From positions 1 through 52,443 of IMG/VR virus record IMGVR_UViG_3300039037_000119: a stretch of DNA of 52,443 bases; one strand, written 5' to 3'. This DNA comes from a virus (taxonomy: Duplodnaviria; Caudoviricetes). The notes beneath the pieces were generated by a model that was given only the letters and a program-made list of their open reading frames with translations, was not told the DNA's origin and ran no database searches. Positions 515 to 28,525 of this stretch are shown here, one piece after another. The number at the start of each line of letters is the position of its first letter. Position 1 is the first letter of the stretch. The position numbers and the translations under genes were made by a program.

Positions 515-781
515 GTGTCTATCATGAGGTCAGAACTTTTAAAGCTTACACCAAAGCAACAAGAAATGATGCAAAATATCCCAGTAGCAATACATTACGA
601 AGGGGTATTTGAACATATCACTATACTCTCTGTAGAAGATGATTTTAGTTGTATTGGGTTAAGGTGCACTATATGTCCCTTCAACACTAGCTCAACCATT
701 ATAACATGTAAACCTGATAAAGAAATCTTAGAAACCCTACGTAATATTGCTAAAGAACAGCACCCACAACTCTTTATATAA
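515..781 (+). CDS. Hypothetical protein with C-terminal PE-tag variant (HPQLFI*)
   Basis: ORF track; C-terminus matches the shared motif. Confidence 0.7.
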   Translation: MSIMRSELLKLTPKQQEMMQNIPVAIHYEGVFEHITILSVEDDFSCIGLRCTICPFNTSSTIITCKPDKEILETLRNIAKEQHPQLFI

Positions 782-861
782 AAGTACCCAAAACATACAC
801 AGAACTTTTTAAAAAATCGTTATTTTTACATACACTAACCTACATATAAAAGGAGTGTTTT

Positions 862-1203
862 ATGGACCTTAAAGAATTGCTATCAGAAGATATGACAATT
901 ACGATAAAACGACTTAGAGTAGAGAAAGAACAAGATTGGGTTGCTTCAAACAATAATGTTCCTATCCTAACTATTCCAGAGGGTGTCAAAATCCAAATCT
1001 TAATGCCTACTAATAATGCTACAGTCCGATTCTTTGCATTCCTCCCTGATGGAACTAGAAAGTCAATCTATTGGGACGATAAAGGAGCATTAGCTGCTAT
1101 GGATAAACCTTATTGGGAAGTCTATCCTGTAAATGGTGACGTATCTAGGCACTATGCAGATGATGAAGATGGTCTATGGGAAGCTATAAAAGCACCTATC
1201 TAA
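862..1203 (+). CDS. Hypothetical protein
   Basis: ORF with AAGGAG RBS. Confidence 0.8.
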   Translation: MDLKELLSEDMTITIKRLRVEKEQDWVASNNNVPILTIPEGVKIQILMPTNNATVRFFAFLPDGTRKSIYWDDKGALAAMDKPYWEVYPVNGDVSRHYADDEDGLWEAIKAPI

Positions 1204-1258
1204 ACTTAATAACTAAAAGGAATACACTTATTTCTATTCATGTACCTAGGAGGAAAAT

Positions 1259-1750
1259 ATGAGAAACCCACTTAGGACCTTCTTACATACCTTTTATAAG
1301 GCATTTACAGAACACCCATTCTATTCACTCCTATTTGTAGTAGGTATTCTTATTTTTTTCTTAATGCCTATACTCTTCGTAATAGGAGTAATACTAGTTA
1401 TTGTGTATGAATCTTGGAGTACTCGTACTACAAAGACAGACCACACTTATGTGCCTCACGATAACAGAGAAGTACCTATAACATCAGGTATCTATACACC
1501 TAGATCAGCAAAACAGGCTTACTTAAACTCCAAAGATTGGTGGAAAAAGAAGCAACTCATACTAGCTAGAGATAACTACAAATGTCAAATGTGTGGAGAT
1601 ACAGAAACCCAACTCAACATACATCATATCACTTATGAACGTTTAGGAAATGAAGACCTAGGTGATCTGGTATGTATATGTGAAACCTGCCATTCTGCTC
1701 TTCATGCAGAACTAGGTTACGCTCAAGACCAAACTTATCCTATCAAGTAG
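1259..1750 (+). CDS. HNH endonuclease with N-terminal transmembrane segment
   Basis: RDNYKCQMCG..LNIHHITY..DLVCICETCHSALH (CxxC-HH-CxxCH); hydrophobic stretch at residues ~22-50; AGGAGG RBS. Confidence 0.85.
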   Translation: MRNPLRTFLHTFYKAFTEHPFYSLLFVVGILIFFLMPILFVIGVILVIVYESWSTRTTKTDHTYVPHDNREVPITSGIYTPRSAKQAYLNSKDWWKKKQLILARDNYKCQMCGDTETQLNIHHITYERLGNEDLGDLVCICETCHSALHAELGYAQDQTYPIK

Positions 1751-2181
1751 AGGTTACTATGAAAGAGGGGTATCATGTAGTTGCAGGAAATTACGAAGAT
1801 AATCCTATAAATATTAAATACACTAATACTTTTGATACTCTTGAAGAGGTTATCAAGATGTAGATAGTATTTTTAACTGTTCTGTTGTTTATATTATATA
1901 TAAAGAGCGATTCTTAGATTTAATATATAAAGGATTTACTTTATAGGAGTATATTGATGAGACCAGAAAACATATTAATGAATAGCTTAGCTATCCTTAT
2001 CATAGGTTCTATTATACTTTATAACATACCTTAAAATAGATTGTCTAAATCTATTACACCTCTCTTCTCCCTATTCTCTATATATATAGAGACTTTGACT
2101 TAAACTATCTTTTGTAAAAGCTAGTTTAGCATATATTCAAAGAAAGTAAATACAAATATAAAAATTATTTTAGGAGCCATT

Positions 2182-2478
2182 ATGGAAGATTTTAAATGGT
2201 TAAAGAGTAAATACGGTAGTGATGGATGGGAATGGTACTACAGACAATTAAAATTCCGTACGGTAGTTCTTTACAGCATACCTCTCCTTATACTACTTGC
2301 AATAGTAGCAGTACCTGAGTTGAATATTCTTATAACACTACTATTACAAATAGTTTCTTTAATTATAGTACATCAAATAGTTAAAAAAGATATTAAAGAA
2401 ACATCAAAGAAAGCAAATAGTTTTATACACTGGTACTTTAAAGACTTGGAAGAACGTATCAGAATACTATCTAAATAA
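2182..2478 (+). CDS. Hypothetical membrane protein
   Basis: Two hydrophobic segments; AGGAG RBS. Confidence 0.7.
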   Translation: MEDFKWLKSKYGSDGWEWYYRQLKFRTVVLYSIPLLILLAIVAVPELNILITLLLQIVSLIIVHQIVKKDIKETSKKANSFIHWYFKDLEERIRILSK

Positions 2479-2483
2479 ACAAT

Positions 2484-2560
2484 GCTTCGGTAGCTTAGCG
2501 GTCTAAAGCATCCGTCTCATAAACGGGAGAGCAAGGGTTCAAATCCCTTTCGAGGCACCA
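2484..2560 (+). tRNA. tRNA with CAU anticodon (elongator Met or lysidine-modified Ile2)
   Basis: Acceptor GCTTCGG/TCGAGGC, D stem GCTT/AAGC, anticodon arm TCCGT-CTCATAA-ACGGG, T arm AAGGG-TTCAAAT-CCCTT, encoded ACCA; G1-C72 pair and no triple G-C in the anticodon stem argue against initiator. Confidence 0.93.
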
Positions 2561-2577
2561 AACATAAAGGATTACTT

Positions 2578-2817
2578 ATGCCACATCTAAAAATATTCAA
2601 TACCTTATATCACATAGATGAAATTAGAGTAGTCCATCCACCAACAAAAGAAACCAGTAAGAGATATGCCAGTAACTTTAAAGTAGATTTTGAATTTAAA
2701 ACTTTAGACTATCTGACAGGTAAACCACTAACTAGATCATATAGATTCGAAAATAAAGCAGAAGCGGATACATTTTTTGATAAACTGGTAAAAGACCTAG
2801 GAGCTACTGATGTCTAG
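2578..2817 (+). CDS. Hypothetical protein
   Basis: ORF with AAGGA RBS. Confidence 0.75.
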   Translation: MPHLKIFNTLYHIDEIRVVHPPTKETSKRYASNFKVDFEFKTLDYLTGKPLTRSYRFENKAEADTFFDKLVKDLGATDV

Positions 2818-3016
2818 TTTATATATACGAACACTAAATATTATATATTCTTGTAAAACAGTACCTCAGTACGAGGTAGCTGCTTCTTATATAGAGCTGA
2901 CAGACTTACCGGAAAGCTATAAACAAGGTTTACGTACCTTAGTGTATACCAGTATAGAGTCTTTAAGGAGCTACAATGATAAACTTAATACTAGCAAAAG
3001 AACGGAATATATCTGA
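2810..3016 (+). CDS. Hypothetical protein
   Basis: ORF with AGGAG RBS, overlapping the upstream gene. Confidence 0.65.
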   Translation: MSSLYIRTLNIIYSCKTVPQYEVAASYIELTDLPESYKQGLRTLVYTSIESLRSYNDKLNTSKRTEYI

Positions 3017-3308
3017 ACATAATATACGTAAGATAGAAGTCGCACATGAGGCCATAGACGCTCTTTTTTCAACTCCTTTACATAATCCTACTAAAGAAGA
3101 TATAGAACGTCTTAATACTATGCTAGAAGGCTTAGAATTCTACCTCCAATATCTATGGGGTTTTGACCTAGATCCTACATACCATACATACAAATGGAAA
3201 CACCCTTCCTGTACTTGTCCTACCCTAGATAATCTAGAACGTTTAGGCACTCCTTACCACATCATCAGTCAGGACTGTCCTTTACATCAGGAAACGTGTA
3301 ATTTGTGA
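2976..3308 (+). CDS. Hypothetical phage protein with C-terminal Cys/His cluster
   Basis: CTCPxxDN...CPLH, a putative metal-binding motif; AAGGAG RBS. Confidence 0.75.
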   Translation: MINLILAKERNISEHNIRKIEVAHEAIDALFSTPLHNPTKEDIERLNTMLEGLEFYLQYLWGFDLDPTYHTYKWKHPSCTCPTLDNLERLGTPYHIISQDCPLHQETCNL

Positions 3309-3341
3309 AGTGTTTTTAATGATGGATACAGGAGAAGAATA

Positions 3342-3674
3342 ATGAGTGAAAAAGAAGTACAAGCACTAGACCGTTCAATGTCAGAAATGATAACTACAAT
3401 AACAGAAGCTATTGAGCGTATTAAAGAACTTGAAGCCTATAGTGATAATTTATTAAGCTATATCGTTAGACTTTCTAATACCTTCACAATTAGTCCAGGG
3501 TTACACTTTGAATTACAAGAGATTGCTAAACAATCTCCTCAATATTCAATTAAAAAAATAAAAGCTGATGCTATTCGTGAAACGGCTAGAGAACTAGACA
3601 AGCTATATACAGACTGCGATGTTGTAATTGAACTAATGACTAACTACGCAGACGAATTAGAGGGTGATTTATGA
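3342..3674 (+). CDS. Hypothetical coiled-coil protein
   Basis: ORF with AGGAG RBS; helical heptad pattern. Confidence 0.7.
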   Translation: MSEKEVQALDRSMSEMITTITEAIERIKELEAYSDNLLSYIVRLSNTFTISPGLHFELQEIAKQSPQYSIKKIKADAIRETARELDKLYTDCDVVIELMTNYADELEGDL

Positions 3675-3757
3675 AAGATGAAAATGAGTTAGAGGGTAAG
3701 TTATGCATAAACAAATCATAGATAAACAACTATATAACATAACCAAAGAAAAAAAAA

Positions 3758-4390
3758 ATGATCAAGATAGATAAGTACTCAACAGGTAAGTACTCAACAG
3801 GGAATCGCTCAACAGGGTATCATTCAACAGGGAATCGCTCAACAGGGTATCATTCAACAGGGGATTGCTCAACAGGGTATCATTCAACAGGGGATTGCTC
3901 AACAGGGAATCGCTCAACAGGTAAGTACTCAACAGGGGATTGGTCAACAGGGAATCGCTCAACAGGAAATTGGTCAATTTCAAATTACTCAACAGGGCAT
4001 TTTTCAACAGAAGATTATGCAGGTTTTGGGGCTTTTAATAAACCATGTACCCTAGAAGAGTGGGGTGAAGCTAAGAAACCTGATTTCATTTACTTTAAAT
4101 TAACGCAATGGGTTCCTTCTGAGGGAATGACAACAAAAGAAAAAGAAGATAACCCTACCCATAAAATAACAGGCGGGTATTTAAAAGTATATGAACATAA
4201 AGAAGCTTGGAGACAAGCATGGGAAAAAGCAACAGATGCCGACAAAGAATTACTATATGCTCTACCTAACTTTGATGCAGAAGTGTTTAAAGAAATCTCA
4301 GGTATTGACGTAAACGAAGATAGTACTAAAGAATTGACTATCGCTGAGATTGAAAAACAACTTGGTTATAAAATTAAAGTGGTGAAATAA
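3758..4390 (+). CDS. Phage pentapeptide (xxSTG) repeat protein
   Basis: 16 five-residue units (KYSTG/NRSTG/YHSTG/DCSTG), then TGGYLK..AW..LPNFDAEVFKEISGID typical of phage NTG/STG repeat proteins; C-terminal ELTIAEIEKQLGYKIKVVK module. Confidence 0.85.
   Translation: MIKIDKYSTGKYSTGNRSTGYHSTGNRSTGYHSTGDCSTGYHSTGDCSTGNRSTGKYSTGDWSTGNRSTGNWSISNYSTGHFSTEDYAGFGAFNKPCTLEEWGEAKKPDFIYFKLTQWVPSEGMTTKEKEDNPTHKITGGYLKVYEHKEAWRQAWEKATDADKELLYALPNFDAEVFKEISGIDVNEDSTKELTIAEIEKQLGYKIKVVK
3773..4012 (+). repeat. 15-bp coding tandem repeat (core TCAACAGG)
   Basis: About 16 imperfect 15-nt units, in frame within 3758..4390. Confidence 0.95.
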
Positions 4391-4431
4391 TGACTGATTA
4401 TATCAGTTGAAGCTTTTGAGAAATTGGAGGA

Positions 4432-4665
4432 TTGATTATGTTTAAAACTTATGAGTACGCTAACAACAATGGCAGTTTTGTGGCTTTCTTGGTAATGCTT
4501 ATTGGGATTATCAGCACAATAGTCGTCTTTACTCTGTTAACAGTGGCGTTTATCGAGTGGAAGATTGATTACGCAACAATTAGGGCATTAATCGCTTTCT
4601 CTGTACTAACCCAAGCACCCACTGTATTTGTGTTCTTTCATAAAAGGATGAACAAAGATGCCTAA
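4432..4665 (+). CDS. Hypothetical membrane protein (likely start ATG 4438)
   Basis: Two hydrophobic segments; GGAGG RBS. Confidence 0.65.
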   Translation: MIMFKTYEYANNNGSFVAFLVMLIGIISTIVVFTLLTVAFIEWKIDYATIRALIAFSVLTQAPTVFVFFHKRMNKDA

Positions 4666-4745
4666 AAAAACTAGAAACAATTAACGAAGTCCTACACGCT
4701 TTAGCTAATGGACATGAAGTGGAAGCAGCAGATAGGAAGCTTTGA
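4658..4745 (+). pseudogene. Small ORF broken at an A7 tract
   Basis: Removing one A at 4664-4670 gives MPKKLETINEVLHALANGHEVEAADRKL*. Confidence 0.4.
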
Positions 4746-4770
4746 CATCTATCAATTTAAACTATAAGAT
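4742..4770 (+). promoter_or_regulatory. Sigma70-type promoter
   Basis: TTGACA (4742-4747), 17-bp spacer, TAAGAT (4765-4770). Confidence 0.65.
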
Positions 4771-4776
4771 AGTTTA

Positions 4777-5060
4777 ATACATGAACTTAACTGAATCCAA
4801 AGCTGTGAATCAGCAGTTGATAGCTTACTATCCAGTGATACATTGTTGGTATACTGAGAATACCAGAAGTACTCCCTTGCTTGAAGATGGGAGCGTTTTA
4901 TTGACTACGACATGTTCAAAGGTAAGAGCCTGAACCACACACAGGCATATGGTGGTGACCATAGCTAAGCATCGACATAAAACCAGATAGTATAGGGATA
5001 TACTATTGTTTAGGTTTAATCCTCGTTCGAGGTGGTCAAGCTTCGAACCCTTGACCTACA
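4777..5060 (+). ncRNA. Candidate structured ncRNA (~280 nt)
   Basis: ORF-free region after a promoter with at least 7 hairpins, including ATAGTATA-GGGA-TATACTAT (GNRA loop) and a terminal GGTCAAG-CTTCGAACC-CTTGACC. Confidence 0.6.
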
Positions 5061-5157
5061 TACAATTTTTACACCAGAAGAAGTAAACCTAGCTGCTCAA
5101 ATCTCAAATACATTCACATTATGTGAAGTATTTTTATAACCTAAAAAGGATAATATA

Positions 5158-5892: not shown

Positions 5893-5901
5893 GAGTAAGC
5901 T

Positions 5902-6784: not shown

Positions 6785-6794
6785 GGGAATTAAT

Positions 6795-7226: not shown

Positions 7227-7235
7227 GTATTTACC

Positions 7236-7929: not shown

Positions 7930-9156
7930 ATGACAGACGAAAAATTTGGATTTGAAGAAGCTTTAGCTAACATGGCTACTGCATCTAGTTCCTATCACAA
8001 AGAGTATGTATTTTATGCTCACCTTATTTCACAGTGTCGTGTAACATACGATCCAAAACTAGGGGTGACTGAAGAGGACCCTGAAGGTACTCCATGTGAT
8101 GTAAACTTTATGCATGACCATTACAATCTATTCATTAACCCTACCCTATTTAATCAGATGCCTTTAACACATCGTATGGGTACTTTAAAACACAATATGT
8201 TACATATCCTATACGATCATGTAACTCGTTTAGAAGGACGTGATGTAAAGAAATTCCAAAAAGCTACAGATTGCGCTATTAACCAGCATATCAATGCAGA
8301 CCATCTACCTGATGATGCTGTCACGCCTGAAAACCTACTAGGTAATTATCCAGTCTCTGAAAACAAGACAGCAGAACAATACTTTGAGATGCTTCCTGAT
8401 GAAGACGATAATAATAATGATAATGATGATGATGGGGGTAGTGGTTCATCTACAGGTGATCACCAACAATGGGCTGAATCGCAAGGTGAAGAAGTAATCC
8501 AACAAGATCTTACAAAGAAAATGATGGAACAAGCTAATGCTGAAACCCAAAAAGTACAAGGCAATACTCCTTCTCAATATACTGATTGGCTAGATATCTT
8601 TAACAATGATAAACAAGTCAATTGGAAACAAGTATTACGTCGTATTGTAGGTAACCGTAGAGCTAACCAACGTAAAACATTACTGCGTAGAGATAGACGT
8701 TCCCCTCACTTCGAACATATCAAAGGTCGTACAAAAGACCGTACTTTTGATTTATTAGTAGTAGGGGACGAATCTGGTTCAGTATCTGATACAGAACTAG
8801 TGCAAGCTATTTCAGAAACAATACAGCTATGTAAAGTAATGAATACAAGCACTAGATATATCTCAGTAGATACTCAAGCTTACCCATCAGTAGAGTTAAA
8901 AGCTAATACCCGCTCTTTTGAACGTAATGCTCGTGGTGGTACATACATCTCAAAAGCCTTAAAACAAGCTTCTAAAGAACATCTATCTTATGATGCCTTA
9001 CTAGTCATTACAGATGGATATTTACATACGTCTGATGTAGAAGCCTTTGCTGAAGCTAATCGCCCTACTATCTTCTTAATTACCTCAGAAGGACAAATCA
9101 TGGACCAAATGCAAACAGGTCGTATGAGAGCTATCAAACTAGAGACAGGTGATTAG
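7930..9156 (+). CDS. Metallopeptidase-like (DUF2201-type) plus vWA domain protein, MoxR partner
   Basis: HNMLH at the HExxH position, ATDCAIN, acidic linker, MIDAS DESGS..GGT..ITDG. Confidence 0.85.
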   Translation: MTDEKFGFEEALANMATASSSYHKEYVFYAHLISQCRVTYDPKLGVTEEDPEGTPCDVNFMHDHYNLFINPTLFNQMPLTHRMGTLKHNMLHILYDHVTRLEGRDVKKFQKATDCAINQHINADHLPDDAVTPENLLGNYPVSENKTAEQYFEMLPDEDDNNNDNDDDGGSGSSTGDHQQWAESQGEEVIQQDLTKKMMEQANAETQKVQGNTPSQYTDWLDIFNNDKQVNWKQVLRRIVGNRRANQRKTLLRRDRRSPHFEHIKGRTKDRTFDLLVVGDESGSVSDTELVQAISETIQLCKVMNTSTRYISVDTQAYPSVELKANTRSFERNARGGTYISKALKQASKEHLSYDALLVITDGYLHTSDVEAFAEANRPTIFLITSEGQIMDQMQTGRMRAIKLETGD

Positions 9157-9157
9157 T

Positions 9158-9446
9158 ATGATAGTAGATATACATTTGACAAAGAGTGGAGAGCACTTAC
9201 ATTTACGTGTAGTAGCACAACCTCCTTATGACGGTCTAGCTAATAAAAATAACCCTTACCGACAATTACTAGATAGTAAAAAAAGGTATATATAAAAACT
9301 TAATAGAAAAATTAAAACCTCTAATACTAGAACAGGAAAGAGGTATCAAACATCCTTACGTACAATCCCTATTAGCAAAAAATAGCCTAGAAACACTTCA
9401 ACTATTTAAACAGGCTAGAAAAACAAATCCGGAATATTTTATATGA
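9158..9446 (+). pseudogene. PE-tag small protein interrupted by a +1 frameshift at an A7 tract
   Basis: ATG 9158 stops shortly after A7 (9278-9284); removing one A gives a 95-aa ORF ending KTNPEYFI*, ATGA-coupled to 9443. Confidence 0.8.
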
Positions 9447-9713: not shown

Positions 9714-11003
9714 ATGAACATTAAACAAGTATTTAACTTAATTCAAGAAGCGGATGCGGTAGATCACGTACCTCTAATTGAATCATTACACGGTATTGGT
9801 AAATCAACAATTTGTGAAACCTACGCTCGTGAAAAAAACCTTCATTTTGAACCGTTAATCCTATCCTTAATGGATATTGGAGATCTTATCGGTATTCCTC
9901 GTACTACTCAAGTAGGCGGACAAACAACAACTGTATGGGCAGCGCCAGATTGGTATTCACGTATCGTAAACGCAGCTTGGCCTACAGAAATGCCTATTGA
10001 CCGTTTAAAGTTTGTAGACACAGGTTTATACGATCTAGTAAAAAATCTAGCTACAGAAATGATTAAACGTGAGAAACTAAACGAGCTATATTGCCAATTC
10101 TACAAGCTACCATCTGACGAACTACAATTACTCCGTCAAGAAAATGTAGTATACCTAGATGCAAAACGTTCTGTACTATTCCTAGATGAATTTAACCGTT
10201 CACCTAGTGATGTATTAAACGCCTCGTTACAGCTAATCCTAGAAAAACGTTTGCATACACATATCTTACCTAGAGTCGGTGGTAAAGATACATTCATCGT
10301 ATCAGCAATCAACCCTTCTGACGGTGATTATACAGTAGTAGACTTTGATCCAGCCTTATTAGACCGTTTTGTACAATGCAACCTAGATCCAGATACAAAT
10401 GCCTGGTTATCATGGGCTAACGACAACAACGTAAATGAAGTAGTACGTGACTACTTAACAGAGAACCCATCAAAACTACACTTTGTACCTAAAGATGGTA
10501 AGAAAGGCTCTTCACCACGTTCATGGACTAGATTAGCCTCATACCTAGACAGTATTAATAACAAACCTACTGAGACCACTTCATACTACTTAAAAGGTAT
10601 TATCGGTGAATCACTAGCAGCAGAATTCTTACTATTCTTACAAGGTTATGCTCGTTCTATGTCAGTAGAAGAGATTCAAGAAATTGTAGAGAAGAAAGCA
10701 AAACGTGTTAAAGACATCGAAAAACTAGGTGCTCATGTAGGTAAAGCTATCGACAAGGTAGAGGCTATTAAAAAAATGGAGTTAGCCCACAACCTGCAAA
10801 AGGCTTATACCGATGTAAAAGATGCTTCAGAAGCATTACCATACCTAGCTTACTTATACGGGTTGCCTCTAGAAAACTTAACAGCCTTCTTAACAAATCT
10901 AAAATCAGACAATCAAACTGCGTTCCAGCAACTAGTGGCTTTTGATGGAGAATTGAATAGTAAAGGTTTATTCCGAAAAATTGTAACTAAGGTAGCAAGC
11001 TAA
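9714..11003 (+). CDS. MoxR-like AAA+ ATPase
   Basis: Walker A SLHGIGKS, DLIGIP, Walker B LFLDEFNR, AINP, DPALLDRF, SPRSW; adjacent to the vWA gene. Confidence 0.9.
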   Translation: MNIKQVFNLIQEADAVDHVPLIESLHGIGKSTICETYAREKNLHFEPLILSLMDIGDLIGIPRTTQVGGQTTTVWAAPDWYSRIVNAAWPTEMPIDRLKFVDTGLYDLVKNLATEMIKREKLNELYCQFYKLPSDELQLLRQENVVYLDAKRSVLFLDEFNRSPSDVLNASLQLILEKRLHTHILPRVGGKDTFIVSAINPSDGDYTVVDFDPALLDRFVQCNLDPDTNAWLSWANDNNVNEVVRDYLTENPSKLHFVPKDGKKGSSPRSWTRLASYLDSINNKPTETTSYYLKGIIGESLAAEFLLFLQGYARSMSVEEIQEIVEKKAKRVKDIEKLGAHVGKAIDKVEAIKKMELAHNLQKAYTDVKDASEALPYLAYLYGLPLENLTAFLTNLKSDNQTAFQQLVAFDGELNSKGLFRKIVTKVAS

Positions 11004-12526: not shown

Positions 12527-12563
12527 ATATACTAACTACAATCACCCCGAATTTTTTATCTAG
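12523..12563 (+). pseudogene. Remnant of a PE-tag gene (start and tagged end only)
   Basis: Coupled ATG at 12523, then out-of-frame CAC CCC GAA TTT TTT ATC TAG (HPEFFI*) at 12543-12563. Confidence 0.7.
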
Positions 12564-13710: not shown

Positions 13711-14031
13711 ATGCGAGTAAATATCTACCTAGTAGGAACATCTATCGGTTGTGCTTTAGAGATAGAAGTAGCAAGATATACAGGATGGAGTCACATACAA
13801 CTAACAGATGACAAAAGCTCTAGACGTAAAGATTTATGCTTTTTACTCACTGACCCGTTGTTAGATTTGTCTTCCTCCCCAGACCGGATGTACCAAGACA
13901 AGCTAGATGAAGAAGACTACACCAACGTAAGATTACTAGAATCCTTTACTGTACAAGAGAAAGACCTAGAAACCAGACTAGTTTATTGGATGTCTGTCGT
14001 AGAAGAAAAATACCCGGAGTACTTTATATGA
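13711..14031 (+). CDS. PE-tag small protein (YPEYFI*), paralog of 14345..14677
   Basis: Shares MRxxIYLV, EVAxY, LCxxLTDP, YxNVxLxxSFTVxExDLETxLxYW. Confidence 0.85.
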   Translation: MRVNIYLVGTSIGCALEIEVARYTGWSHIQLTDDKSSRRKDLCFLLTDPLLDLSSSPDRMYQDKLDEEDYTNVRLLESFTVQEKDLETRLVYWMSVVEEKYPEYFI

Positions 14032-14336
14032 AACTAGACATATATAAATATGCAACTATACCTATACTAGAATATGAGATAGACGGAGTAATGGGTATTG
14101 CTCATGTAGAAATTAGTATAGAGGACAGTAATATAGATACAGAAAAAGCACTTAAAAAAGCTCATCAAAGAAACTATCCTACAGACCCATCTATGTTATC
14201 ACTAAAAGAGTGGGCTCCTAATACAGAATTTATTCATATGGTCACAGCAGAAGTAAATAATGTTTCGGAAATTCGTGAAGTATTTACTAATACTTTAAAA
14301 AACCTAAAAACAACAAACCCCGAACTTTACCTATAG
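14028..14336 (+). CDS. PE-tag small protein (NPELYL*)
   Basis: Start revised to ATG 14028 (ATGA overlap, GGAG upstream); C-terminal motif. Confidence 0.8.
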   Translation: MKLDIYKYATIPILEYEIDGVMGIAHVEISIEDSNIDTEKALKKAHQRNYPTDPSMLSLKEWAPNTEFIHMVTAEVNNVSEIREVFTNTLKNLKTTNPELYL

Positions 14337-17482: not shown

Positions 17483-17763
17483 AAACATATATAGTAAAAG
17501 TAGAGGAATGGAATAAAACAGGTCTTCTTATAATTATAGGTGAAAGGGAAGGAAGCAGGTGGGAATTTACTTTTAAGAATTTTAAAGATAATTTACAAAA
17601 AATAAAGAAAAGACTAGAAGACAAAGCTTACACATCAAATAATATACGATCTATAAGTGATTTTAGAAATCACTTAGGCAAGCCATTAAAAATTTTAGCC
17701 ACTTTTGATCAATTACCCCCAGTAGAAGAAATAAAATCAACCTATCCGGAGCTATTTATATGA
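17479..17763 (+). CDS. PE-tag small protein (YPELFI*)
   Basis: C-terminal motif; C-terminal 25 aa resemble the upstream gene. Confidence 0.8.
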   Translation: MKTYIVKVEEWNKTGLLIIIGEREGSRWEFTFKNFKDNLQKIKKRLEDKAYTSNNIRSISDFRNHLGKPLKILATFDQLPPVEEIKSTYPELFI

Positions 17764-18587
17764 GCAAAGACTACTTCTCTTATAACTCAGGTACTGGAAT
17801 CATCCCAAAAGATGATTTTCGTATCAGTCCTTCCCAACTAAGTAAATTCTTTGACTCCACCTCTCAGTGGTACAGAGAACATTTACTAGGTGAAGAAGGT
17901 TTTACAGGAAATACAGCAACATATCTAGGGACGTGTGTCCACGCAGCAGCAGAGATGTACACAGACTCTGGAAAAGTAGACCATTCAGCTATACTATCCT
18001 ACATCGACTCTATAAAAGACCCTGAAGTAGATAAGCAAGAGATACGTTCTCAATACCCTGTAATGGTAAATACTCTTATAGCTAAATACTTATCTCTATA
18101 TAACCATCCAGTAGAGACAGAAATATTTGTACATGAAGAACTACTACCTAAAGTCCATGCTGCTGGTTCCATTGACCGATATGATGAAACACGTAGAAGG
18201 ATCATAGACTACAAATCCATCGGATCACTAGATAAAGCCCGTGTACCTACAAAATTTCCACGAAACTACTGGTTCCAGCAAATGACTTATGCCTGGATCC
18301 TAAAAAAACAAGGTAAGCCAGTAGACTTCGTAGATCTAGTGTACATCAGCCGCTCAAATACAGGTCGTATAAGCGAAAAAACAGGTAAACCTATGAAAGA
18401 CTACCCTTCTGAAGTAAACATCCTTACACATCAAATTACACAAGATGATATGGACGCTATCGAGGGTATCCTTCAACTAGTATCTGAATCTGTAGACACT
18501 TGGAATAGCCACCCAGAGCTACGTCATATCCTAGCTCAAGACCAACGCTTAAAGGCTAAAAAACCTCCTAGACTATTCAAGAATTAG
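17760..18587 (+). CDS. PD-(D/E)XK exonuclease (RecB/Cas4-like)
   Basis: ISPSQL, LGTCVH, E..GSIDRYD..IIDYKS, QQMTYAW. Confidence 0.88.
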   Translation: MSKDYFSYNSGTGIIPKDDFRISPSQLSKFFDSTSQWYREHLLGEEGFTGNTATYLGTCVHAAAEMYTDSGKVDHSAILSYIDSIKDPEVDKQEIRSQYPVMVNTLIAKYLSLYNHPVETEIFVHEELLPKVHAAGSIDRYDETRRRIIDYKSIGSLDKARVPTKFPRNYWFQQMTYAWILKKQGKPVDFVDLVYISRSNTGRISEKTGKPMKDYPSEVNILTHQITQDDMDAIEGILQLVSESVDTWNSHPELRHILAQDQRLKAKKPPRLFKN

Positions 18588-19295: not shown

Positions 19296-19643
19296 ATGGG
19301 ATACTGTACAGACTTTACCCTAGAAGTGGTAAATGGCCCTTCAATAATAGAATCACCCTCATCAGAGTTCAGAGACAGATTCTATAATCTAACAGGTTAT
19401 AATGTACACAATCTAGACTATATAAAGTGGTACTCTGCAGAGAGTGATATGAAAAAACTATCTCTTCACTACCCTGACGTAGTATTCTGCTTAGAAGGTC
19501 AAGGAGAGAACCATGACGACTTTTGGGTTATATATATATGCAACGGTCACATACAAAATGCAAATAGAAGAATAGTAGAGGATCCAATAGACTTCTCTCA
19601 ACTAGATAATTACGATAAAAAGTATCCAGAGTATTTATTATGA
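19296..19643 (+). CDS. PE-tag small protein (YPEYLL*)
   Basis: MGYC..IKWYS..YPDVVF..GQGE..D; C-terminal motif; AGGAG RBS. Confidence 0.85.
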   Translation: MGYCTDFTLEVVNGPSIIESPSSEFRDRFYNLTGYNVHNLDYIKWYSAESDMKKLSLHYPDVVFCLEGQGENHDDFWVIYICNGHIQNANRRIVEDPIDFSQLDNYDKKYPEYLL

Positions 19644-20026
19644 ACCTGTCTAGCATGACCCATAAGTTACACTTACAAGGTATTCAAACCGATATGTCAG
19701 GTACTCTTATTAAAGTAGGGGATACCGTACTCTGTAAAGGTTACTATTCTTTAGATAAAGATACATTAGGTACTGTTCTAAAAATAAATAAAAAGTCCAT
19801 TATAGTAAGTATAAAAACTAAAGTATTGAAATACGGAGAGTACCACCCAAAACCTCTTGGGTATGTAGGTTATTGGGATTGTTACCCTGATAAACATCCA
19901 GTAGAGCGTATACAAAAATTAAAACGTTGCGGTATGGACGTTCTTATAGTACCTCCAAATTTAAAACAAACCTTAGAGACGGCAGAGGAAAGGATAGCAG
20001 TAAGTTATCCAGAAATCTTTATTTAA
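19640..20026 (+). CDS. PE-tag protein with KOW/SH3-like N-terminus (YPEIFI*)
   Basis: DMSGTLIKVGDTV..GTVLKINKKSIIV; C-terminal motif. Confidence 0.8.
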   Translation: MNLSSMTHKLHLQGIQTDMSGTLIKVGDTVLCKGYYSLDKDTLGTVLKINKKSIIVSIKTKVLKYGEYHPKPLGYVGYWDCYPDKHPVERIQKLKRCGMDVLIVPPNLKQTLETAEERIAVSYPEIFI

Positions 20027-20744: not shown

Positions 20745-21407
20745 ATGTTTAAAGTATCAACAAGTAAAGAAGCCACTCAAGAATCATCTGGTGGTAAGTT
20801 CATTGGAAAAAGTGGTATCTATGATATTACTATCCTATTCGCATCAGTAGACACAACTAAAAACGGTGCTATTCAAGTAAACTTCAACATCGAATATAAC
20901 GGTAATACTCAAACTCTTTGGGGACCTATCGTACAAAATAAAGATGGTTCAGATAACACTATCGGTATGACTCTAATCAACAAGCTAGCTATTATTGCTG
21001 GTTTAGGTGATGGTGATGAGCCTACAATCGAAGAAGAAACACACCCAGTAGGTAAAGATAACACAGAACGTGATTTCGCAGTTATCACAGACTTCTCTGA
21101 CTTAGAATGTAAAATCCGAGTTCAAGAAGAATATTCTACCTACAACGGTAATATCAGCGACAAACTGAATATTAAAGCTTTCTACTCTGCAGATGGTGCT
21201 GTAGCTGACGAAATCGTCAACGAAACAGAAATCGGTGTGCAGTTAGAAAAAGACCAAGCTTATGCTTCAAACGTAACCTATCGTGATGGGCTTACTGCTG
21301 AAGACGTAGACGCTTGGATCGCAGGCGGACGCAAAAATGGTGGTGGAAACCAGCCTAAAGCTAAAGCCAAACCTAGTGCCAAAAAAGGCCCTTTATTTAA
21401 ACGATAA
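20745..21407 (+). CDS. Putative single-stranded DNA-binding protein
   Basis: FIGKSGIYDITI start, beta-rich acidic body, flexible tail ending PLFKR; follows the Sak4-like ATPase. Confidence 0.65.
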   Translation: MFKVSTSKEATQESSGGKFIGKSGIYDITILFASVDTTKNGAIQVNFNIEYNGNTQTLWGPIVQNKDGSDNTIGMTLINKLAIIAGLGDGDEPTIEEETHPVGKDNTERDFAVITDFSDLECKIRVQEEYSTYNGNISDKLNIKAFYSADGAVADEIVNETEIGVQLEKDQAYASNVTYRDGLTAEDVDAWIAGGRKNGGGNQPKAKAKPSAKKGPLFKR

Positions 21408-22570: not shown

Positions 22571-22580
22571 TAAGTATATA

Positions 22581-22602: not shown

Positions 22603-22624
22603 TTATACTTATTAAAGGCATCTT

Positions 22625-22909: not shown

Positions 22910-22918
22910 GAACCTCTA

Positions 22919-23113
22919 ATGGAAATATGCAACGAATCTCACCCAGAAATCGTATACACAAGCTTTTGTTGTCCGTTATGTGAATCATTAGAAAAGTACG
23001 ACGAACTATCCTCAGAGCTTGAAGAAACTCAATACAACTATGAAACAACTTTAGACACTTACGCAGAGCTACGCCAAAAAGTAAATAAAGTTAATCCGGA
23101 ACTCCTATTATAA
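22919..23113 (+). CDS. PE-tag small protein with Cys-rich N-terminus and coiled coil (NPELLL*)
   Basis: C..H..CCPLC, then heptads; C-terminal motif. Confidence 0.8.
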   Translation: MEICNESHPEIVYTSFCCPLCESLEKYDELSSELEETQYNYETTLDTYAELRQKVNKVNPELLL

Positions 23114-24585: not shown

Positions 24586-24884
24586 TATATATAATAGAAC
24601 TAAAAGGTTTAGAAGATCCGCTCCCTAAATTTTTTGAAGCTGTAGATATTGCTAGCTACAAAGCTTTCGATACAAATATAAATAAAATATCGTACTGGGA
24701 AGATTCTGTAGAAGAAGCACTAAAATATTTAGAAGATACGACCTCTAGATTTTTTCAAGAAGATATAAAAGAGGTACTTGCTGACGTAGAGTATAAGCCT
24801 AAAAATTATAAAATTTATGATATAGACTCTAATTATTTCTCTATATCAGACATAAAGTATAAATATCCTGAGCTATTCTTATGA
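24582..24884 (+). CDS. PE-tag small protein (YPELFL*)
   Basis: C-terminal motif; ATGA overlaps at both ends. Confidence 0.8.
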   Translation: MIYIIELKGLEDPLPKFFEAVDIASYKAFDTNINKISYWEDSVEEALKYLEDTTSRFFQEDIKEVLADVEYKPKNYKIYDIDSNYFSISDIKYKYPELFL

Positions 24885-25534
24885 TACAATCAACTATTAA
24901 AGTTACACACAAATCTACATCTAATGCCTTTATAGCAAAGCAATGGCTAGATTCTTTACCAGACTTATTTGCCGCAGATTTCGAGACTGCTGTACGCTAT
25001 AGACCAGAAGAACAAACAGCTTATCTAGAGCAATCAAAAGACCTTACACTCCCTATTCAGCAAAGAGCAGAGCTAATCTCAAAAGGAGAGGCTACAGCAC
25101 TAGATCACCCAAGCCACTGTACGATTACCCATTTTTCGGCAGCTTGGTCAGATCACGAAGGATTTGTAATAGTAATGGATAATGATGCAGTAGCTCGTGT
25201 GGTACTACGTTTCTTAGTAACCACTAAAAAAACACAAATATGGCACAACCTAAGTTACGATGCTAAGCACATAATGTACCATACAGGACAATTTCCACTG
25301 GTTTACGAAGATACACAAATCCTATCTAAAACTCTACTAAACCATGTAGATGTGCATAAAGCCTCTACAGGTCTAAAAGAACTAGCAGGCCACAAATACG
25401 GAGAATGGGCTGTAAGCTCAGATTACTTCACATTAGATAATATCCACAACCCCAAACTAATTAAGTATGCTGCCATAGATGCTTGTGCTACTTACTGGTT
25501 ATGGAACGAAATACAATCTCAAATAGAGGGATAG
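24881..25534 (+). CDS. Stand-alone 3'-5' exonuclease (proofreading domain of a family A DNA polymerase)
   Basis: ExoI ADFET, ExoII HNLSYD, EDTQI..GLKELA, ExoIII YAAID. Confidence 0.88.
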   Translation: MIQSTIKVTHKSTSNAFIAKQWLDSLPDLFAADFETAVRYRPEEQTAYLEQSKDLTLPIQQRAELISKGEATALDHPSHCTITHFSAAWSDHEGFVIVMDNDAVARVVLRFLVTTKKTQIWHNLSYDAKHIMYHTGQFPLVYEDTQILSKTLLNHVDVHKASTGLKELAGHKYGEWAVSSDYFTLDNIHNPKLIKYAAIDACATYWLWNEIQSQIEG

Positions 25535-25536
25535 AA

Positions 25537-26007
25537 ATGACAATACAAGAAGCCTATGAAGCACAAACAAAACTCTATCTATTAGAGCCTAGTGATATAA
25601 CATCTACAGGAAAACTGACAGGTGTATCTCTAAGAGCTTACGAGATAGTACTAGATGAACAAAAGTCTAAATACAGCAGTTACATGGACTATACTCCTAA
25701 ACCTACAGGCAAACTGTTTACCTTCAAAAACGGTAAAATAGTAGAGACTAAAACTTGTGCAAAGCTGAACAATAAACATATTAACCATACTATAGTTACT
25801 ACTCTAGGAGAATACACACCTAGCTGGTCTGCTTCCTGTTTTACTGATCCTGTTACAGCCATTGCTGCAAAACAGATGCTTCAAAAGGACCTAATCAACG
25901 GGTACAGAAGAGCAGCAGAAAAAACATTAGCTAGATTAGACGCACTAGATAAAGCCATTCCTTCTATTAGCAATATTGTAGAAGAAAATCCAGAATTGTT
26001 CCTGTAA
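25537..26007 (+). CDS. PE-tag protein (NPELFL*)
   Basis: Start revised to ATG 25537; C-terminal motif. Confidence 0.8.
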   Translation: MTIQEAYEAQTKLYLLEPSDITSTGKLTGVSLRAYEIVLDEQKSKYSSYMDYTPKPTGKLFTFKNGKIVETKTCAKLNNKHINHTIVTTLGEYTPSWSASCFTDPVTAIAAKQMLQKDLINGYRRAAEKTLARLDALDKAIPSISNIVEENPELFL

Positions 26008-26189
26008 TGAACCAATATAACTTTGAAAGAACTATAGCAAGGCTAAAAGCAGACATACTATACCTAAAGAAAGTGTGTATTATGCAAAAAAGCTATAACT
26101 TAGACGTTATAAATACACAAGCTTTATTAGAAGATAAAAAACGTACCTTACAAACTCTCAAAGAAACCTATCCGGAATATTTAATATGA
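26007..26189 (+). CDS. PE-tag small coiled-coil protein (YPEYLI*)
   Basis: TAATG and ATGA overlaps; C-terminal motif. Confidence 0.75.
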   Translation: MNQYNFERTIARLKADILYLKKVCIMQKSYNLDVINTQALLEDKKRTLQTLKETYPEYLI

Positions 26190-28006
26190 CTTACTCCCCA
26201 CACGATCTATTACCGGCTCCAGAACCTAAGTATACAGATTACGGACCTACCTACTTCTATGACAATGTAGCCAAATACTTAATAAAAGATACTGTACGTA
26301 TCATGCATAACGGACTTCATGTTGACCTAGATAAAGTAGAGCAGTTACAGGTAACTTTAGACAACCAGCTAGAAAGTGTAAGCAACCGATTAGCGAGTAA
26401 TCCACATATTAAAGGGTACTTAGATATACGTCATTCAGTACTAATAGTAAAATACCAAGAAGAACGTAAAACAAGACTACGAGACGCATCTTACTATCTA
26501 AAACCATTTAAACCTGGTGATATGACACATCGTAGCTACTTTATGCATATCTACGCTACAAAGTATGGTAAAACAGAGCCTACGGGGCTATTACCGACAG
26601 GTATTCCAAAATGGCCTGCTAATCTAGTGAAGAAGTTATCTAAAACAAAGCCAATGCTCAAAAAACTATTAGCTAAAGAGATTACAGACTCTCACCCTAT
26701 AGCTAAAGAAGCAATGGAGTTACTAGCAACCCATAAAGCAGAGCTACACAACCGTAAATACCTAGATCAGATAGCTTCTCCAGATATCGAGTTACCTCCT
26801 TTTAACCCAAACTCGTCAGAACAGAAAAGAGAACTATTCGAGTCTTTAGGGGTCCAGTCAGACGTGGTATCTAAAACAACAGGACTACCTAGTTATGGGA
26901 GGGATGTCATTGAAGGTATCGGAAAAATGACAGCAGACCCTGACGTCAAAGCTTTAGTAGATGCTTTAATCGACCAATCCTATGCCGCTATAGTAAGAAA
27001 CAACTTCATCAACGCTTTCTATCGCTACACTGTAGATGATCGTCTTTACGGTCAATACAAACTCCTAGGGGCCAAATCAGCAAGATATACCAGTAGTAAT
27101 CCTAACATGCTCAACATGCCTTCTACAGGCTCCATCTTTGCTAAACCTATAAAAAAATGTTTCACAGCTCCTCCAGGGTCCCTCATATGTGCTATCGACT
27201 ACGCAGCTTTAGAAGACCGTGTAGTAGCCAACTTATCTAGGGACAGCAACAAACTAGGTTTATTCTTAGAAGGCCTAGACGGTCACTCCCTATCTGCTAC
27301 CTACTATTACCCTGCTAGGGTTAAGGACATTATAGGTCCTTTTACAGATAACAAAGAGGCCTCTAAACTTCTAAAGGCTATCGTAGACGACAAGGATCAC
27401 CCTAAACATAAAGATGCTGTATCTGTCCGTCAAGACAGTAAACCCATCTCTTTCGGCTTAGCTTATGGCGCTTTCCCTCCAAAGGTTGCTGCTACTGTAA
27501 AGATCCCCCTAGACGAAGCTGAGCTCATATTCAACGCATACCACAATGATCTATTCCCTGGTATCACAGAATTCCGAGAAAGCTACGTACTCCCTACAGC
27601 CATAGAGAACGGACGCATTCACCTAGGGTTAGGTTTCTACATCTACACGGATGACCCTGACAGAGACATCAGGACGATCAACAACGCTTGCTCTCAGTTC
27701 TGGTCCATCCTAACAGCCTTAACGATAAACCGTTTACATGCCTTAATTGATGAAGCAGGGCTACAAGATGATATCAAAGTAACCTCAACCATTTATGACT
27801 CCATATATTTTGAAGTAACCGATGACCCAGAAATTATCAAATGGCTTAATGACCACATCATTCCAGTCATGACAACTGACTTTATGGAAAACCAACTTGT
27901 TCATAATGATGCAGACCTAGAAATAGGTAAGGACTGGGCTAACTTAGAGGTCCTGCCTCACAACGCTTCCATCGAAGAAATACAAACCATAAGGAACTCC
28001 CTATGA
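26186..28006 (+). CDS. Family A DNA polymerase, polymerase domain
   Basis: FNPNSSEQ, ARYTSSNPNMLNMP, motif A IDYAALEDR, motif B RQDSKPISFGLAYG (Phe at the E. coli 762-equivalent position), motif C TIYDSIYF. Confidence 0.95.
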   Translation: MTYSPHDLLPAPEPKYTDYGPTYFYDNVAKYLIKDTVRIMHNGLHVDLDKVEQLQVTLDNQLESVSNRLASNPHIKGYLDIRHSVLIVKYQEERKTRLRDASYYLKPFKPGDMTHRSYFMHIYATKYGKTEPTGLLPTGIPKWPANLVKKLSKTKPMLKKLLAKEITDSHPIAKEAMELLATHKAELHNRKYLDQIASPDIELPPFNPNSSEQKRELFESLGVQSDVVSKTTGLPSYGRDVIEGIGKMTADPDVKALVDALIDQSYAAIVRNNFINAFYRYTVDDRLYGQYKLLGAKSARYTSSNPNMLNMPSTGSIFAKPIKKCFTAPPGSLICAIDYAALEDRVVANLSRDSNKLGLFLEGLDGHSLSATYYYPARVKDIIGPFTDNKEASKLLKAIVDDKDHPKHKDAVSVRQDSKPISFGLAYGAFPPKVAATVKIPLDEAELIFNAYHNDLFPGITEFRESYVLPTAIENGRIHLGLGFYIYTDDPDRDIRTINNACSQFWSILTALTINRLHALIDEAGLQDDIKVTSTIYDSIYFEVTDDPEIIKWLNDHIIPVMTTDFMENQLVHNDADLEIGKDWANLEVLPHNASIEEIQTIRNSL

Positions 28007-28245
28007 AAGATGCACTCGGAATCCCGCTAAAAGTAGGGGACACAGTATACTTAGCGCATTCACATACTAATACCAACTTTTCAGGTTTGACAAAAGTTCT
28101 AAAACTTACCTCCAAAAGAGTAACTGTATGGGATCCCTACTTCCCTGATACTCCTAGTAAGCTTAGTGTACAACCAGAACGTCTACTAAAAGTGTCTGAC
28201 CAGATCAAAGCCAACCAAGTTAACTACCCCGAACTCTACCTATAA
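28003..28245 (+). CDS. PE-tag small protein with KOW/SH3-like fold (YPELYL*)
   Basis: DALGIPLKVGDTVY..KVLKLTSKRVTV; C-terminal motif. Confidence 0.8.
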   Translation: MKDALGIPLKVGDTVYLAHSHTNTNFSGLTKVLKLTSKRVTVWDPYFPDTPSKLSVQPERLLKVSDQIKANQVNYPELYL

Positions 28246-28255
28246 GGAACCTAAT

Positions 28256-28525
28256 ATGGCCCATTTCTACGCCTCCATTCAAGGTAACCGTGGCGAAGCT
28301 ACTCGTTGTGGTTCTAAAACCTCTGGCCTTACCTCCACTGTCTCAGGGTGGGACATCGGAGTAGAGGTCACCTTAGAGTACGACGCTAACCTAGGTACCG
28401 ACATAGTTCATATCTATGCTACTGAAGGATCTAACGGATGCTCTCGAAAACGTATCCTATCCTACATCCAAAAGGAAGGTAGACGGGTTATCCTAGACAC
28501 AGAACATCCAGAGGTCTTGCTATGA
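28256..28525 (+). CDS. PE-tag small protein (HPEVLL*)
   Basis: MAHFYASIQGNRGEATRCG start; AAGGA RBS; C-terminal motif. Confidence 0.85.
   Translation: MAHFYASIQGNRGEATRCGSKTSGLTSTVSGWDIGVEVTLEYDANLGTDIVHIYATEGSNGCSRKRILSYIQKEGRRVILDTEHPEVLL

Follow-up and report, generated by a model that had tools for sequence, protein, structure and literature searches.

The DNA analyzed here, hereafter the window, is the entire IMG/VR record IMGVR_UViG_3300039037_000119 (52,443 bases; Duplodnaviria, Caudoviricetes), whose completeness is estimated at ∼50%. Our subject is a six-residue C-terminal tail, [YHN]-P-E-x-[FLY]-[ILV], that stands directly before the stop codon in about one-third of the genes of this marine phage, most of them small and unrelated to one another. 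On sequence grounds, it represents half of an N4-like phage of ∼100 kb that is kin to Alteromonas phage AD45. Its nearest relatives in culture are vB_AmaP_AD45-P1 to P4, N4-like phages of Alteromonas that are also ∼100 kb in size, with a PolA identity of ∼55%. When 10 kb of its sequence was compared by megablast with cultured phages, there was no match. The + strand constitutes the early/middle module and the − strand carries the virion RNA polymerase.

The tail is found on 26 open reading frames (ORFs) of the + strand, on one frameshifted ORF, and on one remnant without a body (Table 1). A previous sequence-only reading had listed the 26 ORFs, the two additional copies, and three deviant tails (HPQLFI, HPGYFI, and CPEEFI, the last on a helicase). 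All of the ORFs are present with the claimed ends, both additional copies were located, and the deviant tails are as it gave them. In the frameshifted gene, the frame is broken after the ORF at 9149-9295, near an A-run. For 14028 and 25537, the ORF lister gives TTG starts farther upstream (13986 and 25483); the positions used here are ATGs in the same frame. Glu occupies position −4 in 24 of the 26 tails, and its distance to the stop codon is fixed.

Table 1 Tagged ORFs and candidate reader genes of the window, followed by its other annotated genes
Feature	Position	Strand	Tail	Remark
Tagged ORF, 88 aa	515..781	+	HPQLFI	Gln for Glu; sole tag in first 6 kb
Tagged ORF, 79 aa	6083..6322	+	YPELLV	stop overlaps next ATG
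Tagged ORF, 72 aa	6566..6784	+	HPEYFI	
Tagged ORF, 113 aa	7236..7577	+	YPELLL	paralogue of 7574
Tagged ORF, 115 aa	7574..7921	+	HPELLI	paralogue of 7236
Zincin-like peptidase domain (DUF2201_N) + vWA	7930..9156	+		candidate reader, part 1
Interrupted (frameshifted) tagged gene	9158..9446	+	NPEYFI	tail at 9426-9446; directly after vWA gene
Tagged ORF, 85 aa	9443..9700	+	HPEHFI	between vWA and MoxR genes
MoxR-type AAA+ ATPase (Pfam AAA_5)	9714..11003	+		candidate reader, part 2
Tagged ORF, 79 aa	12287..12526	+	YPEFFI	
Scar, bodiless	12543..12563	+	HPEFFI-stop	just upstream of thymidylate synthase start 12572
Tagged ORF, 69 aa	13493..13702	+	YPEKFI	
Tagged ORF, 106 aa	13711..14031	+	YPEYFI	paralogue of 14345
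Tagged ORF, 102 aa from ATG 14028	14028..14336	+	NPELYL	TTG 13986 possible too
Tagged ORF, 110 aa	14345..14677	+	YPELFL	paralogue of 13711
Tagged ORF, 80 aa	14674..14916	+	YPELFL	just upstream of primase gene
Tagged ORF, 96 aa	17192..17482	+	YPEVLL	paralogue of 17479
Tagged ORF, 94 aa	17479..17763	+	YPELFI	paralogue of 17192
Tagged ORF, 99 aa	18589..18888	+	HPEYFI	
Tagged ORF, 128 aa	18900..19286	+	NPELFL	starts MGYC
Tagged ORF, 115 aa (phrog_6306)	19296..19643	+	YPEYLL	tagged homologues in G001, G002
Tagged ORF, 128 aa (phrog_2251)	19640..20026	+	YPEIFI	KOW-like conserved tagged family
Tagged ORF, 94 aa	22625..22909	+	HPGYFI	Gly for Glu
Tagged ORF, 64 aa, Cys-rich	22919..23113	+	NPELLL	
UvrD-like helicase, 490 aa	23113..24585	+	CPEEFI	∼19 extra residues ending in the tail
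Tagged ORF, 100 aa	24582..24884	+	YPELFL	
Tagged ORF, 156 aa from ATG 25537	25537..26007	+	NPELFL	TTG 25483 possible too; tagged homologue in G001
Tagged ORF, 60 aa	26007..26189	+	YPEYLI	
Tagged ORF, 80 aa	28003..28245	+	YPELYL	KOW-like conserved tagged family
Tagged ORF, 89 aa	28256..28525	+	HPEVLL	last tag in window
HNH endonuclease	1259-1750			tag-poor first 6 kb
210 aa protein, weak pentapeptide-repeat match (phrog_14105)	3758-4390			tag-poor first 6 kb
PhoH	11559	+		
Thymidylate synthase	start 12572	+		
Primase	14930	+		
PD-(D/E)XK exonuclease	17760-18587	+		C-terminus …PPRLFKN
Sak4-like protein	20052	+		
Single-stranded DNA-binding protein (SSB)	20745-21407	+		C-terminus …GPLFKR
PolA exonuclease + polymerase	24881, 26186	+		
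Ribonucleotide reductase	29783-32555	+		
ClpP-like protein	33164-33733	+		
Virion RNA polymerase, N4-type (phrog_2206)	34897-39081 (1394 aa), 39081-47060 (2659 aa)	−		split in two adjacent ORFs

As the sequence-only reading had held, conservation of the tail is at the level of the peptide. Among the 26 tails, Pro is encoded by CCA (13), CCG (6), CCC (4), and CCT (3), Glu by GAA (14) and GAG (10), and the stop codon is TGA (12), TAA (9), or TAG (5). Many Leu, Ile, and Phe codons are in use as well. This variation at wobble positions points to selection on the peptide, and a DNA-level repeat or regulatory cassette was rejected because nucleotide conservation extending to the wobble positions was not found. 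The C-terminal anchoring of the motif is supported by a six-frame search for xPEx[FLYM][ILV], which gave 26 occurrences directly before a stop codon and three internal ones on the + strand, and zero before a stop codon and two internal ones on the − strand. The DNA pattern CCNGARNNNYWNNTNTRR has 27 matches in the window (26 on the + strand and one, spurious, on the − strand), as compared to 1.00 ± 0.96 (largest 4) in 100 dinucleotide shuffles. Based on the amino acid frequencies of the window, the motif is expected at a rate of 1.2e-5 per C-terminus, or 0.0009 in 72 heuristic gene calls. The proposed confinement to the early/middle module also holds, with no tagged ORF past position 28525 and none on the − strand.

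Upstream of the motif, the tails of the window are hydrophobic at positions −13 and −10 and carry Lys, Arg, Glu, or Gln at −9. Across genomes, the extended form is hydrophobic(−13)-x-x-hydrophobic(−10)-[K/R](−9)-x-x-[Y/H/F](−6)-P-E-x-[F/L]-[I/L/V]-COOH. A helix had been suggested to precede the motif, and both the hydrophobic pattern and the helix that is predicted for residues 64-74 in the product of 28003 support it. In the AlphaFold2 (AF2) model of this protein (predicted local distance difference test score, pLDDT, ∼75), a small beta-barrel is followed by the helix and then by the tail, which is modeled as a continuation of the C-terminal helix. The nucleotides of the tail serve a second purpose. 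Among 89 tails whose stop codon overlaps the next start codon (ATGA), 77 encode Glu by GAG, as compared to 18 of 155 other tails (Fisher p = 1e-32), where the counts are pooled over the window, the Vibrio phage phiKT1024, and the phage records G001, G002, G006, G007, G008, and G010 (G and L numbers are our labels for records and loci). By this bias, the tail doubles as a ribosome-binding site, with a GAG/GGAG Shine-Dalgarno-like sequence ∼9 nt before the next start.

The bodies to which the tail is attached are mostly unrelated, in agreement with the sequence-only reading. In an all-against-all BLASTP comparison of the 26 bodies minus their last eight residues, four pairs fall below an E-value of 1e-3 (7236/7574, 13711/14345, 17192/17479, and 17192/24582, by start position), and the pair 19640/28003 is found at 0.004. 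Each Pfam family occurs in at most one of 25 tagged proteins, and two of 20 scanned tagged proteins belong to a PHROGs family below an E-value of 1e-3, each to a different one. The tagged bodies include a beta-barrel, a UvrD helicase, a Cys-rich 64-mer, a nucleotidyltransferase-like protein (G007), and proteins of ∼280-380 aa. When ten larger tagged proteins of relatives were compared with Pfam, none scored above the family cut-offs and one nucleotidyltransferase match fell just under. A single homologous family comprising the whole tagged set was rejected, as the end-to-end homology that it entails was not found.

The tail is modular and, in part, inherited. A comparison with five related genomes showed conserved replication genes, between which nearly all of the tagged ORFs are lineage-specific insertions. 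The helicase orthologues in the five relatives end at a canonical terminus (e.g., ...NNAAYL) without the tail; the helicase tail is therefore an extension absent from orthologues, which shows its modular nature. Tagged genes also turn over, as is seen from the scar upstream of thymidylate synthase and from the broken gene that follows vWA. Some tagged families are conserved and nearly always keep the tail, so inheritance accounts for some of the tails and not every one is a new acquisition. The KOW-like family of ∼90 aa has the strict tail in 92 of the 150 representatives listed, which were drawn from a 1.84-billion-protein library, and ∼35 more have the tail with a variable −2 residue. A second conserved family that nearly always keeps the tail is that of the ∼280-380 aa tagged proteins. 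A homologue search with the phrog_6306 member returned only itself. Separately, tandem runs of small ORFs that have other C-termini in common were observed in AD45-P1 (L044, 4771-6741), G005 (L016, 8589-9959), and L011 (3031-3590), the termini being …QLRKEQ…, …SGKKDWxxSLRKIxD, and …LPNIKLLKPRxxN, respectively. By these examples, common C-termini on tandem ORFs are a recurring theme in this phage group.

The tail extends well beyond the window. Tags in whole records were counted with the DNA pattern in the forward and reverse directions, and the pattern read backwards served as the control. Among the relatives found with PolA as bait, G001 (83 kb) has 17 tagged ORFs (17 to 21 tags), G002 (47 kb) has 17 tagged ORFs, G003 has two convincing tags, and G004 and G005 have none. 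A search for related loci with a single vWA sequence gave no pattern match and was repeated with the vWA alignment A1. This zincin-vWA-baited search returned 32 loci, in all of which tags are on the vWA strand only, and some of which are tag-rich. The counts were 21 forward and 0 reverse in the N4-like G006 (56 kb, 54% complete; control 0 and 0), 5 and 44 in the N4-like G007 (103.5 kb, 100% complete; control 0 and 0), 17 and 9 in the jumbo record G008 (224 kb, 85% complete; control 2 and 1), 0 and 9 in G010 (22.7 kb, 12% complete; control 0 and 1), and 2 and 8 in G015 (205.6 kb, 100% complete; control 2 and 0). For phiKT1024, a cultured Vibrio phage of 191 kb, the pattern gave 70 forward matches and 1 reverse match (control 1 and 0). 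Two tag-first scans of IMG/VR (80 listed of 115 stretches and 80 listed of 120) gave mostly short fragments and, among the matches listed, one new near-complete record, the jumbo G025 (235.6 kb, 86% complete), with 17 + 13 tags (control 4 + 1); the follow-up searches excluded L184, a tag-rich locus of the first scan.

The density of tags in these genomes is high. In the tag-rich lineages, the tail is on 20-36% of all ORFs. Of the 169 gene calls in G007, 46 have the strict tail and a few others have a variant of it; the tags are located in early/middle blocks, with five more on small ORFs where the late block starts. In phiKT1024, 72 of 336 gene calls are tagged, and T4-type baseplate and tail genes are annotated beside the vWA gene. 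The GC content of tag-rich records ranges from ∼27% to 46%. Each genome can have its own dialect of the tail, with the last residue being Ile in G007, Leu in G002, Phe in G009, and often Val (GTA) in G020 and G024. Whatever its mechanism, the tail, recurring as it does in several phage groups with little other common gene content, is a strong annotation feature. Two further observations concern individual records. In G007, the MoxR gene spans the record ends (1-592 and 102684-103340) and the IMG/VR label is direct terminal repeats, so the record behaves as a circular or permuted complete genome. In G008 (L089 and L090), the region at 26842-47023 near the zincin-vWA gene encodes a PAS-GGDEF protein, an M16 peptidase, EF-Tu, an Alp7A-like actin, and a TnpB/Cas12f-like protein.

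The genes that accompany the tail point to a candidate reader. The co-occurrence described below is weakened as evidence by heuristic ORF calling, fragmentary records, few independent lineages, and scans limited to the stretches listed. When the phiKT1024 proteins were compared by BLASTP (1e-4) with G008 and four N4-like tag-rich genomes, the genes in common were PhoH, zincin-vWA, and MoxR; G008 otherwise has almost no gene content in common with the window. PhoH is ubiquitous and is also present in the tag-free relative G004. Homologues of the vWA protein are rare, being found in 63 of 50,697 cultured-phage records. The vWA gene is present in each of the six tag-rich records whose completeness is 79% or more (G001, G007, G008, G015, G025, and phiKT1024), where G025 was found by a tag-first scan, G001 via PolA, and the other four via vWA itself. 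Homologues of MoxR are present in G001, G003, G006, G007, G008, G009, G015, G025, phiKT1024, and AD45-P1. Six records that are complete or at least 78% complete do not have the vWA gene (G004, G005, G016, G017, G018, and KVP40), and tags are at the control level in all six; absence was judged by BLASTP at 1e-4 and a MoxR search for G004 and G005, and by the vWA profile for G016, G017, and G018. KVP40 is a large T4-like Vibrio phage, with the same host genus as phiKT1024, that has no tags and no vWA. A comparison of gene content among G000-G005, a small set, revealed no untagged gene that is exclusive to tag-rich genomes.

A tagged protein of ∼280-380 aa is encoded directly after MoxR in L046 (G006), L062, and phiKT1024; in G001, it comes one small tagged ORF later. 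The homologue of the ∼280-380 aa protein is the only clear tag in AD45-P1, and in tag-poor genomes that bear vWA the few tags sit on conserved partners, namely this protein and the KOW-like family. A universal rule of a vWA gene followed by a tagged ORF was rejected, as this arrangement is found in only seven of 30 genomes. Another ORF was observed in this region. It encodes ∼133-139 aa ending in …FGN[KR]EL[RK] and is located directly after the vWA gene in L052, L054, and L060, and at 85713-86111 in phiKT1024 (L107), ∼2.5 kb downstream of the vWA gene; it may be another conserved neighbor of the module.

Of the readers that the sequence-only reading had named, the MoxR-vWA pair is supported by this comparative co-occurrence and ClpP is not specifically supported. 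Homologues of the ClpP-like gene are found in all five relatives, including the tag-poor or tag-free G003-G005. Because the ClpP gene is core in tag-free relatives, it was set aside as a specific reader, and the same lack of co-occurrence gives no support to a Clp/FtsH/Lon-type degron tied to this phage protease. Loading of virion cargo, as with the encapsulin cargo-loading peptide or the T4 capsid-targeting sequence, is not supported either, since the tags of the window are neither past 28525 nor on the late strand.

The candidate reader comprises two proteins. The vWA protein matches Pfam DUF2201_N and VWA, and its MIDAS (an adhesion site that depends on a metal ion) is complete (D280, S282, S284, T338, and D362; DxSxS...T...D). 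Across 29 vWA homologues, the MIDAS residues and the three His of the zincin domain are invariant, and the zincin Glu is nearly so. The exception is in the window, where the HExxH motif (codon 89) reads HNMLH, a Glu-to-Asn replacement that takes two base changes, and the other 28 homologues in alignment A2 read HEMLH. Because the search pattern admitted both forms, HNMLH is a real exception, and the zincin domain of the window looks like a peptidase-dead variant. The window keeps 26 tags in spite of this, which argues that cleavage is not a universal outcome and that peptidase activity is not needed for the role of the tag here. In a Foldseek search with the AF2 model of the vWA protein (pLDDT 84), the C-terminal domain matched the VWA/MIDAS fold of CMG2, Rea1-MIDAS/Ytm1 (6qtb), and NorQD, and no solved structural relative of the N-terminal domain was found. 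A PDB sequence search with the vWA profile gave only weak matches (best E-value 0.067), so the zincin domain has no close relative among solved structures. The second protein matches Pfam AAA_5, which identifies it as a MoxR-class AAA+ ATPase. A complex prediction of the vWA protein (alignment A2) with Zn, Mg, and a 60-aa tagged protein (tail alignment A3) gave ipSAE values of 0.00 and 0.00; run without controls, it speaks neither for nor against binding.

Taken together, the tail and the common MoxR-vWA pair suggest a phage-encoded protein-addressing system. Our preferred reading, to which we give an even chance, is that the tail is a short linear motif at the C-terminus that acts as a portable docking tag, by which proteins become clients of a machine that the phage encodes in two parts, the MoxR AAA+ ATPase and the zincin-vWA protein. 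In this mechanism, the near-invariant Glu and/or the free terminal carboxylate would complete the coordination of a metal, either at the MIDAS or at the zinc of the zincin domain; the constant spacing of three residues to the C-terminus, together with the two hydrophobic residues that end the tail, would suit a pocket. The ATPase would then remodel, release, hand on, or help degrade the client. The ancestral state would have been one to three cognate clients, with a later spread in some lineages, mainly onto small, fast-evolving accessory proteins of the early/middle module. Genome-specific dialects are expected if the reader co-evolves with its tails. A more specific and doubtful version is that MoxR and zincin-vWA form a split FtsH-like ATP-dependent protease or remodeler, with the tail as its private, genetically encoded tag. 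If so, one machine would time the removal, activation, or hand-over of the whole early host-takeover arsenal, and new accessory genes could join via ∼14 codons that also supply the ribosome-binding site of the next gene.

Several observations weigh against a MoxR-vWA reader. For several tag-rich genomes, the vWA protein was itself the bait of the search. Further genes are common to G008 and phiKT1024, which are perhaps distant kin, and this may leave only two to three independent lineages. Most tag-first records are fragments of 5-28%, so absence of vWA from them carries no meaning, and its absence from G004 and G005 rests on BLASTP at 1e-4 and a MoxR search rather than on a vWA profile. AD45-P1, G003, and G012-G014 have the pair yet have zero to three tags, so the pair is not sufficient, and G011 has nine pattern matches (control 2) without a MoxR match. 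The vWA and MoxR genes are ∼46 kb apart in phiKT1024 and ∼100 kb apart in G008, and only seven of 30 vWA genes directly precede a tagged ORF. In the window, the catalytic Glu of the zincin is replaced and the tagged ORF beside the vWA gene is interrupted; in G001, MoxR is split into two overlapping ORFs of 300 and 98 aa (73779-74970, L026), either by a frameshift or by an assembly error. The reader may thus be decaying in genomes that keep many tags.

The reader could instead belong to the host. The tail would then dock onto a conserved hub of the host, or act as a degron that a host protease reads, with the sliding clamp, ClpX/ClpA, Lon, FtsH, RNA polymerase, and the ribosome as examples of such partners, and the co-occurrence with MoxR-vWA would reflect a common gene pool among marine phages. 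A hydrophobic terminal pair after an acidic residue resembles several C-terminal signals that hosts read, and the tags are on small early/middle accessory proteins, a class that usually acts on the host. Some vWA-bearing phages are almost tag-free, so that the pair alone does not explain the number of tags. We nevertheless regard a host reader as unlikely, given that KVP40 has no tags despite sharing a host genus with phiKT1024 and that the rare vWA-MoxR pair is in every tag-rich near-complete genome. Moreover, the range in GC content may mean diverse hosts and hence a near-universal reader, yet the tag dialects are genome-specific. The sliding clamp in particular was rejected: the beta-clamp-binding consensus, QL[SD]LF, requires Gln and Leu at its first two positions, whereas the tail has Tyr, His, Phe, or Asn at −6 followed by an invariant Pro.

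Two other explanations dispense with a common reader. The tail could be an inherited structural C-terminus (a helix, a Pro kink, and a hydrophobic cap) of a fast-diverging superfamily of small proteins, spread by tandem duplication and kept because it stabilizes small folds or protects C-termini. The tandem paralogue pairs (7236/7574, 13711/14345, and 17192/17479), the near universality of the tail in the KOW-like family, the modeling of the tail as a helix continuation, and the other common C-termini on tandem ORFs in this group would all fit. The tail is, however, on clearly different bodies, and its exact stop-codon register, near-invariant Pro-Glu, and genome-wide dialect shifts are unexpected for a fold cap, which would also leave the link to MoxR-vWA unexplained; we therefore consider this explanation improbable, and somewhat more so than a host reader. 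Least probable by far, in our view, is a signal at the level of nucleic acid or translation, such as a cassette at gene ends that serves translational coupling or recombination, or an effect of the nascent peptide on termination. The excess of GAG in ATGA-overlap tails and the persistence of a remnant tail upstream of a downstream gene (12543-12563) speak for such a signal, but tails that end in TAA or TAG and are followed by a spacer and a separate Shine-Dalgarno sequence keep the peptide, with GAA as the Glu codon. All four Pro codons and many Leu, Ile, and Phe codons are used, the variation is at wobble positions, and a link to MoxR-vWA would not be expected.

Should one phage machine read the tail, it would provide a simple handle on dozens of proteins per genome that have no assigned function and would define a functional class among phage ORFans, the clients of MoxR-vWA. 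It would also give the phage MoxR-vWA-zincin pair its first concrete role, and would show how a short terminal motif plugs fast-evolving accessory genes into a common control or delivery step. Cultivable phages (phiKT1024 and its relatives, and the Alteromonas AD45-type phages) would offer access to the system, and the tail could become a small portable tag for engineering.

A different C-terminal motif was observed on two replication or recombination genes of the window. The exonuclease (17760) and the SSB (20745) have in common a basic motif, basic-P-x-L-F-x-K, which is kept in orthologues in L007, L008, L011, L014, and L044, in tag-rich and tag-free relatives alike. It may be a replisome or recombination docking tail. 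On the − strand, the larger ORF of the virion RNA polymerase (2659 aa) also matches a baseplate-hub/lysozyme PHROG near its N-terminus.

Short end peptides that are carried by many proteins and read by one receptor include the ssrA tag, PTS1, the encapsulin cargo-loading peptides, and the T4 capsid-targeting sequence, the last of which is N-terminal and found on few late proteins. The tail described here differs from these in sequence, in being phage-wide (20-36% of ORFs) and encoded in the genes themselves, and in that its receptor is only putative. No description of the tail was found in the literature searched, and neither Pfam nor PHROGs has a model for it. One terminal tag with one reader is known from cells; to our knowledge, an encoded tag on 20-36% of phage ORFs that recurs in phage groups otherwise sharing little and is tied to MoxR-vWA is new.

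Among MIDAS-based machines, Rea1 (midasin) offers one comparison. The Rea1 MIDAS grips a conserved Glu of its client. The predicted vWA fold of the window matches 6qtb; Rea1 differs in being a eukaryotic single polypeptide that has no peptidase domain and that binds a folded ubiquitin-like domain (of Ytm1 or Rsa4) rather than a terminal peptide. In the account of PMC4660213, Rea1 is an AAA+ machine of the clade to which MoxR belongs and one that grips its client via the MIDAS. A pair that appears identical to ours, with an N-terminal metallopeptidase domain fused to vWA, is known from group 2.2 jumbo phages, for which the relevant passages of Iyer et al. (2021, PMC7824862) propose a role in virion assembly through processing of structural proteins. 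Here, the tags are on early/middle accessory proteins and not on structural ones. The passages of that paper on MoxR, vWA, and zincin do not mention the tail, and the phrase "C-terminal motif" occurs 0 times in the text.

The nearest parallel is CbbQO, the MoxR-vWA Rubisco activase. As described in the passages of PMC4660213 on this system, recognition requires an acidic residue of the client, for the MIDAS, together with a C-terminal motif of the client, the distance of the motif to the terminus is critical such that one added Ala abolishes function, and the isolated C-terminal 11-mer peptide stimulates the ATPase. The putative phage system resembles it in having a MoxR ATPase and a vWA/MIDAS candidate adaptor, and the fixed distance from Glu to the terminus fits its client rule at the sequence level. 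The differences are that CbbQO serves a single dedicated client, Rubisco, whose terminal motif is HK/R, whereas here up to ∼70 unrelated putative clients per genome carry another motif, and that the putative adaptor here has an extra zincin domain. For a tail whose near-invariant Glu stands at a set distance from the free carboxylate, CbbQO provides the closest precedent in mechanism.

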